Source: Alphaproteobacteria bacterium
GTDB lineage: Bacteria; Pseudomonadota; Alphaproteobacteria; UBA2966; CAIVPW01
NCBI GenBank assembly: GCA_947481575.1
Contig: CANKGV010000007.1
Location: 11,504-75,503 of the forward strand
Reading direction: 5' to 3'
Length of the DNA stretch: 64,000 nt
Under the pieces are notes generated by a model, which had not been told where the DNA came from, searched no databases, and saw nothing but the letters and a program-made list of their open reading frames with translations. The translations under genes were made by a program, and so were the position numbers. How positions within the stretch are numbered: the first letter of the stretch is position 1; the number at the start of each line of letters is the position of its first letter. Shown here in pieces: positions 9,611-17,301 of this stretch.

Positions 9611-10557
9611 CGCCAGAGTTTGCCGGCGACGCAGCGGTCGCCGCTGCTGCCGCCGATTGGCTGGACTGGTTGCGCCGCGAACGCCGCGCCTCCCCTCACA
9701 CCGTTGCCGCCTATCGCCGGGACCTTGGCGCGTTTCTGATGTTCCTGGGCGAACATCTGGGCGGACCGGCGACGATGACCAGCCTCGCCACACTGCGCGC
9801 GAGCGATTTCCGCAGCTATCTGGTGGCGCGCCAAGGCGAAGGCTTGGTGGCCGCATCGCGGGCACGGGCGCTTTCGACCGTGCGCAGCTTCTACCGGTTC
9901 CTGGCGCGGCAGGGCGTGATCGAGAACCCGGCCCTGGCAGTGGTGCGGGCGCCGAAGTTGCCCCATGCGGTGCCGAAGCCGCTGACGGTGACCGACGCGA
10001 AGGCGGCGCTGACCATGGCCGGCGAGCCGACCGGCGAGCCGTGGATCGCAGCGCGCGACGCCGCGGTGCTGTCGCTGCTGTACGGCTGCGGCCTGCGCAT
10101 CGCCGAGGCGCTATCGCTGAACCGGCGCGCGGCGCCGTTCGGGCCGACCATGATTGTCACGGGCAAAGGCAACAAGCAGCGCATGGTGCCGGTGCTGCCG
10201 GTAGTGAAGGCGGCAACGGAGGCGTACTTGCTGGCCGTGCCGTTCGCGCTAGCCGCCGACGGCCCCCTATTCGTAGGCGCCCACGGCGCGCGGTTGCGGG
10301 CCGAGATCGTGCAGGCGCGGATGCGCGCGGTACGCCGCGCTCTGGGGTTGCCCGAGACCGCGACGCCCCACGCACTGCGTCACAGCTTCGCCACCCACCT
10401 CCTGGCGGCAGGCGGCGACCTGCGGTCGATTCAAGAGCTCCTAGGCCACGCTTCGTTGTCGACGACGCAACGTTATACCGAGGTCGACTCGGCCAGCCTG
10501 TTGCGCACGTACGACAACGCCCACCCGCGCGCACGGATGGAAAAGCGCCGCGCCTAG
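9589..10557 (+). CDS. xerC: Tyrosine recombinase XerC
   Basis: LYGCGLRIAEA, GKGNKQR, TPHALRHSFATHLL, LGHASLSTTQRY; DUF484-xerC synteny. Confidence 0.93.
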   Translation: MAGPGALTPEFAGDAAVAAAAADWLDWLRRERRASPHTVAAYRRDLGAFLMFLGEHLGGPATMTSLATLRASDFRSYLVARQGEGLVAASRARALSTVRSFYRFLARQGVIENPALAVVRAPKLPHAVPKPLTVTDAKAALTMAGEPTGEPWIAARDAAVLSLLYGCGLRIAEALSLNRRAAPFGPTMIVTGKGNKQRMVPVLPVVKAATEAYLLAVPFALAADGPLFVGAHGARLRAEIVQARMRAVRRALGLPETATPHALRHSFATHLLAAGGDLRSIQELLGHASLSTTQRYTEVDSASLLRTYDNAHPRARMEKRRA

Positions 10558-11966
10558 ATGTGGATGGCGCGGCCGATCGCGCCGAGTGCCGCTTCCTTCA
10601 CGGCCTCGGCCAGGGTCGGGTGTGCGTGGCAGGTGCGCGCGACGTGTTCGGCGGTACCGCCGTACCCCATGGCCACCACCACTTCGTGGATCAGCGTCCC
10701 CGCCTCGGGCCCAAGAATGTGGGCGCCGAGAATCGTACCGCTGCCCTTTTCGGCCAGAATCTTCACGAAGCCATCGGTGAAGCCGTTGGCGCGGGCGCGT
10801 CCATTGGCGAGAAACGGAAACTTGCCCACCGCGTATTCGACACCGGCCGCCTTGAGCTGTTGTTCCGTCTGACCGACCGCCGCGGCTTCGGGCCACGTGT
10901 AGACGACACCGGGGACCTGGTTGTAGTCGACGTGCGCGTGCAGACCGGCGATGTTCTCGACGCAGGCAACGCCATCTTCCTCGGCCTTATGGGCAAGCAT
11001 CGGACCGGGAATGCAGTCGCCAATCGCGTAGATGCCGGGGACGCTGGTGGCGAAGTGGGCATCCACTGCGATCATGCCGCGAGCGTCGGTTTTGACACCG
11101 ACCGCTTCCAGACCGACTCCTACAGTGTTGGCCTTGCGGCCAACGGCGACCAACACGACGTCGGCCTCTAGCACCTCTGCGTCGCCGCCTTCGGCAGGCT
11201 GAACCGTCAGAGCCACGGCCTCGCCGCGGACGGTCGCGCCGATGACCTTGGTGCCAAGGCGGAAGGTCAGCTTTTGCCGCCCCAGCAGGCGCTGCAGCGT
11301 GGTGGCGACCTCGTCATCCATGCCCGGCAGGATGCGCGGCAGGTATTCGACAACGGTTACCTCGGAGCCCAAGCGGGCCCATACGGAACCCAACTCCAGC
11401 CCGATGTAGCCGGCGCCGATCACGATCAAGCGCTTCGGCACGGCGGGCAACGCAAGGCCACCAGTCGAGGAGACGATCCGCACTTCATCGACCGGCACGC
11501 CGGCAAGCGGCGTTGGGATCGAGCCGGTAGCGATGATGATGTTCTTCGCGGCGAGAGTCTGCGCGGCACCGCCATCGGCAGGCGTTACGGCGACGCTGGT
11601 GCGGCCCGCGAGCACGCCGGTGCCGCGCACATGGGCGATGTTGTGTTTCTTGAACAGGAACGCAACGCCGCGGGTGTTCTGATCAACGACCTTGTCCTTG
11701 CGCGCCTGCATGGCGGCCAGGTCGAGGGTCACGGTCCCCACGCCGACGCCGTGTTCGGCGAAGTGGGTTTGCGCCTCGGTATACAGATGCGAGGAGGTAA
11801 GCAGCGCCTTGGACGGAATGCACCCAACGTTGACGCAGGTGCCACCCAGACGCTCGCGCGCTTCGACGCACGCGACCTTCATCCCAAGCTGCGCGGCCCG
11901 AATCGCTGCGACGTAGCCGCCAGGACCGCCGCCGATGATGACGAGATCGTGGGTCTGCGCTTCCAT
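10554..11966 (-). CDS. lpdA: Dihydrolipoyl dehydrogenase (E3)
   Basis: GGGPGGY, GGTCVNVGCIPSKAL redox disulfide, HAHPTLAEA. Confidence 0.97.
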   Translation of the reverse strand: MEAQTHDLVIIGGGPGGYVAAIRAAQLGMKVACVEARERLGGTCVNVGCIPSKALLTSSHLYTEAQTHFAEHGVGVGTVTLDLAAMQARKDKVVDQNTRGVAFLFKKHNIAHVRGTGVLAGRTSVAVTPADGGAAQTLAAKNIIIATGSIPTPLAGVPVDEVRIVSSTGGLALPAVPKRLIVIGAGYIGLELGSVWARLGSEVTVVEYLPRILPGMDDEVATTLQRLLGRQKLTFRLGTKVIGATVRGEAVALTVQPAEGGDAEVLEADVVLVAVGRKANTVGVGLEAVGVKTDARGMIAVDAHFATSVPGIYAIGDCIPGPMLAHKAEEDGVACVENIAGLHAHVDYNQVPGVVYTWPEAAAVGQTEQQLKAAGVEYAVGKFPFLANGRARANGFTDGFVKILAEKGSGTILGAHILGPEAGTLIHEVVVAMGYGGTAEHVARTCHAHPTLAEAVKEAALGAIGRAIHI

Positions 11967-12005
11967 CGTGGTCTCCGCCAGAAGAGCCGCAGGTCCGGTG
12001 TAGAA

Positions 12006-12938
12006 CTAGTTGCCGCCTTTGCCGGTCCGCGCGCGCGGACGCGTGGGCCGCGGGGGCGGAAACTTGCCGCGCAACAGATTCACCAAGGTGCTGCCGATCG
12101 CAGCCGGTGAGTCGGCCACGGCAAATCCGGCGCTGCGCATGGCTTCCTTTTTTGCTTCCGCGGTATCCGAACCCGCGGAGATCACGGCCCCGGCGTGGCC
12201 CATACGGCGGCCGGGCGGCGCGGTGGCGCCGGCAATGAAGCCGACGATCGGCTTCTTCACACGGCTGCGGCGATAGAAGGCCGCCGCATCCGCTTCGGCA
12301 GAGCCACCGATTTCGCCGATCATGATGATCGCTTCGGTGCCGGGGTCGGCCAGGAACAACTCCAGCACTTCCAGATAGACGGTACCCGGCACGGGATCGC
12401 CGCCGATGCCGACGCACGTGCTTTGGCCCATGCCGGCGCGGGTGGTTTGTTCCACCGCCTCGTAGGTGAGCGTACCGGAGCGGGACACGATACCGATCTT
12501 GCCCGGCGTGTGAATCTGCGCGGGCATAATGCCGATCTTGCACTGACCCGGCGTGATGATGCCGGCGGTGTTCGGGCCCAACAGGCGTGTGCGCGAACCC
12601 AACAGCGCGCGTTTTACGCGGATTTCGTCGAGCACCGGAATGCCTTCGGTGATGCACACGGCGAGTTCCAGGCCGGCGTCGATCGCCTCAAGAATTGCAT
12701 CGGCCGCGCCGGGCGGCGGCACGTAGATCGCGCTGGCGGTGGCGCCGGTGGCTTCTACCGCTTCGGCAACCGTGTCGAATACCGGCAAGCCGAGGTGTGT
12801 CGTGCCGCCTTTGCCGGGCGTAACGCCGCCAACCACCTTGGTGTTGTAGGCAAGCGCCTGTTCCGTGTGGAACGTGCCCTGGGCGCCGGTGATGCCCTGG
12901 ACGATGACGCGGGTGTCGGAATTGATGAGGACGCTCAT
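12006..12938 (-). CDS. sucD: Succinate/malate--CoA ligase alpha subunit (atypical GPNTAG motif, basic C-terminal extension)
   Basis: [30 protein letters not shown] phospho-His. Confidence 0.93.
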
Positions 12939-14107
12939 TATGCGTTGGCCCGGGTGGCGGCGACGATCTTTTCAGCGGCATCGGTCAGGCCGTCGGCGGA
13001 GATGATGTCCAAGCCCGATTCGGCCAGGATCTTCTTGCCCAATTCGACGTTGGTGCCTTCGAGGCGCGCCACCAGCGGCAGCTTGAGCCCGACTTCGCGG
13101 GCCGCCGCAACCACGCCGTTGGCGATCAGGTCGCAGCGGTTGATACCGGCGAAGATGTTCACGAGGATGCCCTTCACGGCCGGGTCTTCCAGGATGATGC
13201 GGAACGCTTCGGCCACGCGCTCTTTGGGCGCGCCGCCACCGACATCGAGGAAGTTTGCGGGTTCGCCGCCATGGAACTTGATCAGGTCCATGGTTGCCAT
13301 GGCGAGGCCGGCGCCGTTGACCAAGCAGCCGATGTTGCCGTCGAGCTTTACGTAATTCAGGCTGGCCGCCTGGGCGCGGATTTCTGCCGCGTTCTCTTCC
13401 GCTTCGTCGCGCATCTTGGCGACCTCAGGCTGGCGGAAGAGGGCGTTGTCGTCGATCGCCATCTTGGCGTCGAGGGCTAACACCCGGCCGTCCTTGGTGA
13501 CGCATAGCGGGTTGATCTCGATCAGGGCCGCATCGAACGCGTGATAGGCTTGGTAGGCCCCCTGCATCAGCGTCACCGCGGCTTTCACTTCGTTGCCCTT
13601 GAGGCCAAGCGCAAACGCCATCTTGCGGCAATGGAATGGCTGCAGGCCGGTGGCGGGATCGACCACCACACGGATGATCTTGTCGGGGGTGTTGGCAGCG
13701 ACTTCTTCGATATCCATGCCGCCGGCCACGGAGCCCACCAGCATCAGGCGGCTCACCGGGCGGTCGAGCAGAATCGAGAAGTAGAGTTCGCGGGCGATAT
13801 CGACGCCTTGCTCGACGTAGACCTTGGAGACTTTCTTCCCCGCGGCGCCGGTCTGCGGCGTCACCAGGGTCATACCCATGATTTCGCGGATCGCTTTGAC
13901 CGCATCGGCGGCGGTCTTGGCGACTTTGACGCCGCCGGCCTTGCCGCGGCCACCGGCGTGCACCTGGGCTTTGACGACCCAGACCGGGCCGCCGACTTCC
14001 GCCACGGCGGCCTCGGCTTCGGACAGGTTCTGGACCAGAACGCCCTTGGGCGTTGCGACACCGCGGCGCGCGAGCAGCGCCTTGGCCTGATACTCGTGAA
14101 GGTTCAT
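12938..14107 (-). CDS. sucC: Succinate/malate--CoA ligase beta subunit (MtkA-like [10 protein letters not shown] motif)
   Basis: MNLHEYQAK start at 14107, [36 protein letters not shown]. Confidence 0.93.

Positions 14108-14239: not shown

Positions 14240-17301
<3,062 letters not shown>

Follow-up and report, generated by a model that had tools for sequence, protein, structure and literature searches.

Malate-thiokinase-type residues in the sole succinate-CoA ligase of an uncultured alphaproteobacterial family: a candidate bifunctional enzyme

The mdh-sucC-sucD-lpd locus and its reference enzymes

In this work, we analyze a 64,000-nucleotide stretch of alphaproteobacterial DNA (the window; assembly GCA_947481575.1, contig CANKGV010000007.1, positions 11,504 to 75,503), in which the genes sucC and sucD encode the beta and alpha subunits of succinate-CoA ligase (succinyl-CoA synthetase, SCS). 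At a handful of otherwise conserved positions these subunits carry residues of malate-CoA ligase, or malate thiokinase (Mtk), and the enzyme may act on L-malate as well as on succinate. The window's genome (G000; 2.45 Mb, 47 contigs, 98.7% complete) belongs to genus g1 of an uncultured alphaproteobacterial family, here f1, represented by 10 genomes of 1.3-2.5 Mb in genera g1-g4, the relatives being 91-95% complete; f2 denotes the neighboring family and g7 a genus of f2. Absences given below mean that a gene was not found in these assemblies. The genes and motifs of the locus are as follows, "TN type" referring to a third group of ligases, linked to the malyl-CoA lyase gene mcl, that is described in the next section.

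14240..15250, minus strand: mdh, malate dehydrogenase, directly upstream of sucC (NF004863, 450.6 bits)
12938..14107, minus strand: sucC, beta subunit of succinate-CoA ligase, 389 amino acids, ATG at 14107, protein starting MNLHEYQ (NF001913, 560.1 bits, cut-off 370; NF010647, 558.3 bits, cut-off 604)
12006..12938, minus strand: sucD, alpha subunit, 310 amino acids, its start overlapping the sucC stop by one base (NF004230, 449.8 bits, cut-off 336)
10554..11966, minus strand: lpd, dihydrolipoyl dehydrogenase, starting 40 bp past the sucD stop (TIGR01350, 553.4 bits)
13130..13159, minus strand: beta AGINRCD motif, with Ala320 (13148-13150) for Gly and Asn323 (13139-13141) for Met or Val
13322..13324, minus strand: beta Leu262, which is Met in ordinary SucC and Ile in Mtk and in the mcl-linked TN type
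13226..13228, minus strand: beta Pro294, within GGGAPKE, which is Thr in ordinary SucC and Ser or Thr in Mtk
12561..12578, minus strand: alpha GPNTAG motif, with Thr124 for an invariant Cys and Ala125 for Pro
12900..12902, minus strand: alpha Val13, within VIVQGITG, replacing the Cys of ordinary SucD (Phe or Ile in the TN type)
12009..12062, minus strand: C-terminal tail of SucD, 18 residues, basic and Pro/Arg-rich, found in genera g1 and g4

A degenerate back-translation of the 10-residue beta motif has a single match in the window (13130-13159, minus strand) and matched none of 100 shuffles, while the SucD motif that includes GPNTAG corresponds to residues 121-131 (about 12546-12578), with SRSGTLTYE and the MGHAGA phosphohistidine loop also present. 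The AGINRC-type beta and GPNT alpha motifs reported by a first-pass annotation of this DNA are thus confirmed by the back-translation match and the open reading frame translations. The same annotation had described the proteins as SucCD-like in other respects (MNLHEYQ start, no MtkB insertion, mdh as neighbor), and this is borne out by the translations, the alignment, and the gene order; residues 1-386 of the beta subunit are collinear with residues 1-386 of E. coli SCS beta (438 bits).

References for Mtk came from NF010647, the NCBIfam model for the beta subunit of malate-CoA ligase, with which 401 genomes of the class and 301 of the phylum were scored (the tally includes two genomes, G261 and G062, that are flagged as unpublished, and G261 is also in the score list; no other claim rests on them). 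The scores are bimodal, at about 618-760 bits versus 604 bits or less, with a few just above the cut-off, and the 26 high scorers were taken as the Mtk set; the ordinary reference set comprises 60 SucC and 55 SucD sequences. By gene context the Mtk reference loci are genuine: among six whose context was checked, four have an HpcH-family (mcl-type) gene directly adjoining the ligase, accompanied in two cases by a class V aminotransferase gene, and the remaining two loci have aminotransferase, 2-hydroxyacid dehydrogenase, serine hydroxymethyltransferase, or phosphoenolpyruvate (PEP) carboxylase genes. All 26 Mtk beta subunits read AGINRCD and Cys fills the GPNC position in 25 of their 26 alpha partners, with position 13 of alpha occupied by Val (20), Ile (5), or Met (1); the six Mtk alpha subunits that were aligned share a 4-residue insertion before GPN, which the SucD of the window does not have. 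Ordinary enzymes, in turn, have Gly320 (60/60) and Met or Val323 (60/60) in SucC, and Cys124 (55/55) and Cys13 (53/55) in SucD. These tallies uphold the motifs that the first-pass annotation had given for canonical SucCD and for MtkAB.

Reach of the residue trait and a third group of ligases

A single SucC-like gene is present in each of the 10 f1 genomes, so that neither the window's genome nor its relatives hold a second, canonical sucCD. All 10 enzymes read N[IV]FAGINRCD and GPNT[AP]G, and Ala320, Asn323, Thr124, and Val13 are each found in 10/10, compared to 0/60 ordinary beta and 0/55 ordinary alpha subunits with the trait residues; the possibility that such motifs are common among ordinary alphaproteobacterial SucCD is ruled out by these counts. 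Within f1, Ala125 (as in Mtk) is confined to g1 and g4, and g2 and g3 read GPNTPG. The ordinary beta motif was read at all of 20 loci from f2 and from further families of the class, and GPNT at none of them, while the best 120 matches in a large protein collection comprise 27 AGIN sequences, which are the closest, and 93 canonical ones. As judged from this distribution, the trait is a shared derived character of one uncultured family, and neither a quirk of a single genome nor a common alphaproteobacterial variant.

The departures from the ordinary enzyme also coincide with those of Mtk. In ordinary SucCD, 388 columns are at least 85% conserved; f1 differs consistently at 11 of them and Mtk at 35, with 6 in common where about 1 would be expected (hypergeometric P = 1.2e-4). 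The six shared columns are beta 30, 262, 294, 320, and 323 and alpha 13, and at three of them the residue itself is identical in f1 and Mtk (Ala at beta 320, Asn at beta 323, and Val at alpha 13). Few ordinary SucC have Leu262 (4/60).

A structural rationale for positions 320 and 323 in acid binding can be offered as a lead, not as a result. In the pig GTP-specific SCS-succinate complex of Huang and Fraser (2016), the free carboxylate of succinate is reportedly held by the Gly-Gly backbone of the beta motif together with a nearby Asn. That Asn would presumably be Asn264 here, which is conserved in every group compared; over the aligned span the pig chain is longer by seven residues, consistent with this numbering.

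A DNA scan for FAGINRCD in species-representative genomes returned at least 120 loci, which form a sample and not a census. Profile score and GPNCAG mark nearly all of the matches listed as Mtk, and the record titles among them include Methylobacterium, Hyphomicrobium, Nitrosomonas, Methylococcales, SAR116, and Pelagibacterales. At least four loci (L132, L207, L193, and L198), from Nitrotoga, Gallionellaceae, Methylothermaceae, and a metagenome-assembled actinomycete genome, instead combine AGINRCD with GPN[TS]PG and SRSGTLNYE and constitute the TN type. Among these listed matches, the ligase directly adjoins an ortholog of malyl-CoA lyase (Mcl) in 4/4 genomes, the beta subunit has Ala320 and Asn323 in 4/4, alpha 124 is Thr or Ser in 4/4, and another SucC-like gene is also present in 4/4, as it is in 8/9 Mtk genomes, in contrast to the sole copy of f1 (10/10). 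TN-type ligases are probably an unrecognized type of malate thiokinase. They resemble the f1 enzyme in AGINRCD, in Thr (or Ser) at the GPNC position, and in a non-Cys residue at alpha 13, and differ from it in being sister to Mtk (100/99), in reading SRSGTLNYE, in adjoining mcl, and, among the matches listed, in coexisting with another SucC-like gene. The GPNTAG of the window and of g4 combines features of the TN form and the Mtk form, whereas the GPNTPG of g2 and g3 is exactly a TN form; the earlier statement that Thr at the GPNC position matches neither group was therefore mistaken, as it matches these mcl-linked ligases.

A further SucCD-like type, with NIFGGMMRC(N/D) and GPNC(P/S)G (L249-L254, L264-L268, and L100), was encountered as well. 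Six small genomes with Ccr (G030, G214, G344, G337, G727, and G201) have it as their sole SucC-like gene, and it is a second copy in G082, G252, G090, G391, G098, and G039, in the last four of which it lies within about 3 kb of ordinary sucCD.

Ancestry of the f1 enzyme

Overall similarity places the f1 enzyme with ordinary alphaproteobacterial SucCD, to whose subunits the identity is 60-66% (beta) and 67-75% (alpha), compared to 48-57% and 49-59%, respectively, for Mtk. Gene order agrees: mdh adjoins sucC at 10/10 f1 loci and 36/43 ordinary alphaproteobacterial loci, and at 0/27 Mtk loci and 0/14 loci from other classes, and the order sucC-sucD-sucA-sucB is found in G003 and G006, followed by lpd in G003. 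The beta subunits of four representatives scored as follows on the SucC and Mtk models.

Window (f1): SucC model 560.1 bits, Mtk model 558.3 bits
Ortholog from f2 (L017): SucC model 585.2 bits, Mtk model 565.4 bits
mcl-linked TN type (L132): SucC model 547.8 bits, Mtk model 565.7 bits
True Mtk (L031): SucC model 555.2 bits, Mtk model 759.8 bits

The near-tie of the two scores in f1 was considered as a sign of Mtk character and rejected, as ordinary alphaproteobacterial SucC reaches about 570-604 bits on the Mtk model. L132, which lies below the Mtk cut-off and over the SucC cut-off, would be named SucCD.

Phylogenies were inferred with IQ-TREE under the site-homogeneous model LG+G4 using careful searches; a first quick beta tree was set aside because a constrained search gave a better likelihood. 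In the beta-only tree (60 rows), a 98/98 branch splits Mtk from the group that holds f1, and f1 is sister to g7 of f2 (94/81). With beta and alpha combined (58 rows, 680 columns), 28 ordinary alphaproteobacterial and 8 f1 rows group in a single clade (100/99), the Mtk rows make up a clade of their own (100/100) that excludes f1, and f1 is again sister to g7 (90/85). Removing eight trait columns left the placement of f1 unchanged (93/92), and adding the TN ligases gave Mtk plus TN (100/99), the alphaproteobacterial enzymes plus f1 (100/99), and f1 plus g7 (97/87). Approximately unbiased (AU) tests of constrained topologies gave the following values.

f1 and Mtk as a single clade, beta alone: log-likelihood loss 20.6, p = 0.316
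f1 and Mtk as a single clade, beta plus alpha: log-likelihood loss 37.6, p = 0.136
f1 and Mtk as a single clade, eight trait columns removed: log-likelihood loss 28.9, p = 0.273
f1, Mtk, and TN as a single clade: log-likelihood loss 59.0, p = 0.085

On the strength of overall similarity, the missing MtkB insertion, mdh synteny, and the maximum-likelihood trees, the f1 enzyme is read as a vertically inherited alphaproteobacterial SucCD. A relocated mtkAB is ruled out by the overall identity, the missing insertion, the synteny, and the tree position. Convergence with Mtk is the best-supported history, with AU tests that do not reject a single origin (p = 0.085-0.32). Each computational check suggested by the first-pass annotation had a favorable or neutral outcome. 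Its proposal of a SucCD that had shifted "independently" holds as regards nesting within alphaproteobacterial SucCD (100/99), Mtk-type residues at a handful of sites, and no grouping with MtkAB, and is weakened in its word "independently" by the AU tests, which leave a joint clade with Mtk unrejected.

Alternatively, the signature could have arisen once, with Mtk and the TN ligases descending from an f1-like alphaproteobacterial SucCD, or with f1 receiving its operon from that stem, and f1 would then be a surviving intermediate. None of the four AU tests rejects this, and the quick search gave a better tree under the constraint; against it, the careful trees split f1 from Mtk by branches of 98/98 to 100/100 and set f1 beside its organismal neighbors, the log-likelihood cost of the constraint rises from 21 to 59 with more data and taxa, mdh synteny is common to f1 and ordinary SucCD and not to Mtk, and f1 is without the MtkB insertion and other Mtk-wide residues. 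We judge a single origin improbable; it concerns history and is compatible with a bifunctional enzyme.

Compared to known systems, the f1 enzyme is like alphaproteobacterial SucCD (NF001913/NF004230; E. coli 1jkj/2scu) in the curated cut-offs met by both subunits, the phosphohistidine loop, the collinearity with E. coli beta, the mdh-sucC-sucD(-sucA-sucB-lpd) order, and the tree position. It differs at beta 320, 323, 262, and 294 (Thr294Pro) and at alpha 13, 124, and, in g1 and g4, 125, all at least 85% conserved in ordinary enzymes, and the window differs further in the basic SucD tail and in the 2-oxoglutarate dehydrogenase (OGDH) genes, which were not found in its genome. To MtkAB of serine-cycle methylotrophs (NF010647) it is similar in AGINRCD, a non-Cys alpha 13, Ala at alpha 125 (g1 and g4), and an Mcl of the same type in the genome, and dissimilar in its score (558.3 bits versus a cut-off of 604, with true Mtk at 618-760), its place outside the Mtk clade (100/100), the lack of an insertion before GPN, SRSGTLTYE versus SRSGTL(G/S)YE, Thr124 versus Cys, no linkage to mcl or serine-cycle genes, and no separate SucCD.

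Gene content, proposed function, and alternatives

Mcl is encoded in 10/10 f1 genomes and is about 70% identical to the Methylobacterium enzyme of solved structure 5ugr (462 bits). The first-pass annotation had looked to malyl-CoA lyase and to ethylmalonyl-CoA or serine-cycle genes as company for a malate ligase; the former is present, and of the latter, Ccr was not found in four f1 genomes, nor was PEP carboxylase in G000 (tblastn, one query), where the only related hit to the serine cycle was a 31%-identical class V aminotransferase. In G000, G006, G001, and G002, searches for Ccr, malate synthase, isocitrate lyase, a second HpcH-family gene, and a POR-type 2-oxoacid oxidoreductase found none of them. 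The ethylmalonyl-CoA pathway, the glyoxylate shunt, and a full serine cycle consequently have no support as the home of Mcl in f1, Ccr, isocitrate lyase, and malate synthase being unfound in all four genomes. A succinyl-CoA:malate CoA-transferase was likewise considered as a partner of Mcl, and searches of G000, G006, and G001 for class III CoA-transferases returned none. In G002, the smallest f1 member, two class III CoA-transferase genes lie in tandem (L116, G002:C159:290-2612) and may provide an alternative CoA-ester route in that genus. Searched alongside, the f2 genome G013 yielded malate synthase, isocitrate lyase, twelve class III CoA-transferases, and a POR-type enzyme. A glcD-glcE-glcF operon lies outside the window in G000 (G000:C1:33150-37131), with GlcE and GlcF over their cut-offs and GlcD full-length and below its cut-off, and a GlcD-like gene is present in 4/4 f1 genomes searched.

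Neither sucA nor sucB was found in G000 by family search or by tblastn with the relatives' proteins, the only hit being a 35%-identical E2 that is probably the pyruvate dehydrogenase E2; the sucD-lpd junction (11967-12005) holds no sucAB, whereas in G003 lpd comes about 1 kb after sucD-sucA-sucB (compare L061, L062, and L127). The genes for OGDH E1 and E2 are lost from the window's genome. Since sucA, sucB, and a POR-type oxidoreductase were not found in a 98.7%-complete assembly, the tricarboxylic acid (TCA) cycle of this organism is probably branched. In G002, no match to sucA or sdhA was obtained and sucD is followed by xerC and priA, while 5-aminolevulinate (ALA) synthase is encoded in G000, G002, and G006 and sdhA in G000 and G006. 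Succinate activation must persist, because the f1 genomes have a sole SucCD, relatives keep the sucAB operon, and SucCD is the only route found in G000 to the succinyl-CoA of ALA synthase; as the enzyme must still use succinate, bifunctionality is likelier than a full switch.

The SucD tail is conserved at about 15-18 residues in 6/10 f1 genomes (g1 and g4) and is absent from g2, g3, and the f2 and Mtk sequences aligned. Its origin as a scar of the sucAB deletion is ruled out, as g4 keeps sucAB yet has the tail.

We propose that the f1 SucCD is a bifunctional succinate/L-malate thiokinase, a reading based on its residues and the gene content of the genomes and one that we hold to be about evenly balanced between right and wrong. 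The acyl-substrate pocket would have been remodeled by beta Gly320Ala, Met323Asn, and Met262Leu and by alpha Cys13Val and Cys124Thr, in g1 with Pro125Ala in addition; we infer both the effect of these residues on specificity and the direction of flux. On the succinate side, the enzyme would carry TCA flux in relatives that keep sucAB, and in G000 it would supply succinyl-CoA for ALA synthase and other biosynthesis. On the malate side, it would partner the single Mcl of f1: glycolate would be oxidized to glyoxylate, Mcl would condense glyoxylate with acetyl-CoA to malyl-CoA, and SucCD would convert malyl-CoA, ADP, and Pi to malate, ATP, and CoA, as a substitute for malate synthase that would save the thioester energy as one ATP. 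The malate synthase reaction is exergonic enough to permit such an ATP-conserving route. With glcDEF in the genome and no malate synthase found, the direction from glyoxylate to malate is the likeliest, and the oxaloacetate-to-malate-to-malyl-CoA module envisaged by the first-pass annotation may run in reverse; the opposite, serine-cycle direction, from malate to acetyl-CoA and glyoxylate, is possible. The earlier suggestion of a housekeeping SucCD shifted to malate accordingly fits the family-wide Mtk-type residues and the presence of Mcl, and fails as a simple re-purposing in that a sole SucCD must keep succinate.

Several observations bear on a malate flux through this enzyme. Ordinary SCS is reported to use malate 340- to 540-fold less efficiently than succinate (10.1101/2024.09.25.614871), so that real flux would need a changed pocket. 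Moreover, f1 keeps Mcl with no other partner found, be it an Mcl2-type thioesterase, Mtk, the Ccr pathway, or malate synthase. The nearest described counterpart is the "apparent malate synthase" of Rhodobacter sphaeroides and Methylobacterium extorquens, in which Mcl1 acts with the malyl-CoA thioesterase Mcl2 (PMC2948502); the proposed f1 route would be similar in that Mcl condenses glyoxylate and acetyl-CoA before malate is released (PMC2948502), and different in having a single HpcH-family gene (no Mcl2), no Ccr found, and a release that would be phosphorolytic and ATP-yielding. The literature listings and abstracts searched contained no report of Mtk residues in a SucCD, or of a bypass of malate synthase by Mcl and SucCD.

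A number of points weigh against this proposal. On the Mtk model, the f1 beta subunit (558 bits) scores lower than ordinary alphaproteobacterial SucC does (about 570-604), and the structural argument for 320 and 323 is tentative. In G000, mcl is unlinked to sucCD and is found on a different contig, with accA and a recombinase gene as neighbors. Mcl1-type genes occur in 138/401 genomes of the class, and among 29 small (2.7 Mb or less) Mcl-positive genomes used as comparators, Ccr was found in 18, malate synthase in 5, and Mtk in 2; six (G043, G222, G140, G205, G714, and G124) are without Ccr, malate synthase, or Mtk, yet have one ordinary SucCD; AGIN occurs in 0/15 single-copy comparators whose motifs were read, and f2 has Mcl in 12/13 genomes together with ordinary SucCD. 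Given the six comparators, an AGIN-type ligase is not a requirement for Mcl to function, and the argument from gene content is no more than suggestive. The loss of two alpha cysteines could instead be a change in oxidation resistance, and a thioesterase of another family, for which no search was made, could release malate. Three of the unpartnered-Mcl comparators (L255, L256, and L260, in G043, G222, and G714) have Leu262 like f1, but keep Gly320 and Met323.

A possible, if somewhat doubtful, alternative is that the enzyme is an ordinary SCS whose substitutions reflect drift or tune cysteine oxidation, stability, or regulation, with Mcl served by another partner. Every family model calls the enzyme SucCD, relatives have an mdh-sucCD-sucAB-lpd operon, an unpartnered Mcl occurs with ordinary SucCD in 6/29 comparators and likewise in f2, and two of the alpha changes remove cysteines. 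Drift or tuning is harder to reconcile with positions 320 and 323, which show no such variation in any of 60 ordinary SucC and have the exact Mtk residues in 10/10 f1 genomes, with the fall of 6/11 f1 departures on columns where Mtk departs (P = 1.2e-4), with the recurrence of the same residue set in a third, mcl-linked group, and with a Met-to-Asn change that takes two base changes.

The pocket could also fit another substituted C4 or C5 dicarboxylate (itaconate, citramalate, methylsuccinate, or mesaconate), with Mcl acting as a citramalyl-CoA or beta-methylmalyl-CoA lyase. Ordinary SCS is reported to take itaconate better than malate, at 15- to 30-fold below succinate (10.1101/2024.09.25.614871), Mcl scores 177.6 bits, below the cut-off, on an itaconate-degradation lyase model, and G002 has its tandem CoA-transferases. 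We regard this as very unlikely, in that the residues match exactly the set found in ligases whose gene context links them to malyl-CoA lyase and the serine cycle, the f1 lyase has about 70% identity to a genuine L-malyl-CoA lyase, and Ccr was not found, itaconyl-CoA and mesaconyl-CoA hydratases not having been searched for. A dedicated malate thiokinase that is no longer an SCS, to which the loss of sucA and sucB in G000 might point, is scarcely credible where sucAB lies directly downstream in relatives, SucCD is the only one present, and ALA synthase needs succinyl-CoA while OGDH, a KOR-type enzyme, and a class III CoA-transferase were not found in G000.

Returning to the bifunctional succinate/L-malate thiokinase, if the residues act as their distribution suggests, the family would be a natural experiment that names the few positions parting succinyl-CoA synthetase from malate thiokinase, and beta G320A and M323N with alpha C13V and C124T would constitute a minimal succinate-to-malate specificity switch of this enzyme family. 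Mtk is described as limiting in natural and synthetic serine-cycle, reverse-glyoxylate-shunt, and malyl-CoA-glycerate pathways (PMC2948502; PMC6966089). There is also an annotation problem, in that family models name both the f1 clade and the TN-type ligases plain SucCD, while six ordinary alphaproteobacterial SucC with canonical NIFGGIMRCD/GPNCPG (L040-L045) reach 604.2-610.4 bits on NF010647, just above its 604-bit cut-off. About six of the 15/401 genomes over that cut-off probably hold ordinary SucC and are at risk of the name malate-CoA ligase. Misnaming in this enzyme family is already known from Methylococcus "sucCD-2", annotated as SCS and reported to be an efficient Mtk (PMC6966089).

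For the organisms themselves, we suggest, with more reservation than for the bifunctional activity, that a whole streamlined family may have merged SCS and Mtk in one housekeeping enzyme by means of three to five of Mtk's substitutions, and that with Mcl this enzyme may replace malate synthase in an ATP-conserving manner. If so, a central enzyme of the TCA cycle would have gained a second pathway role during genome reduction, and the family would possess an energy-conserving alternative to malate synthase for the use of glyoxylate and glycolate.

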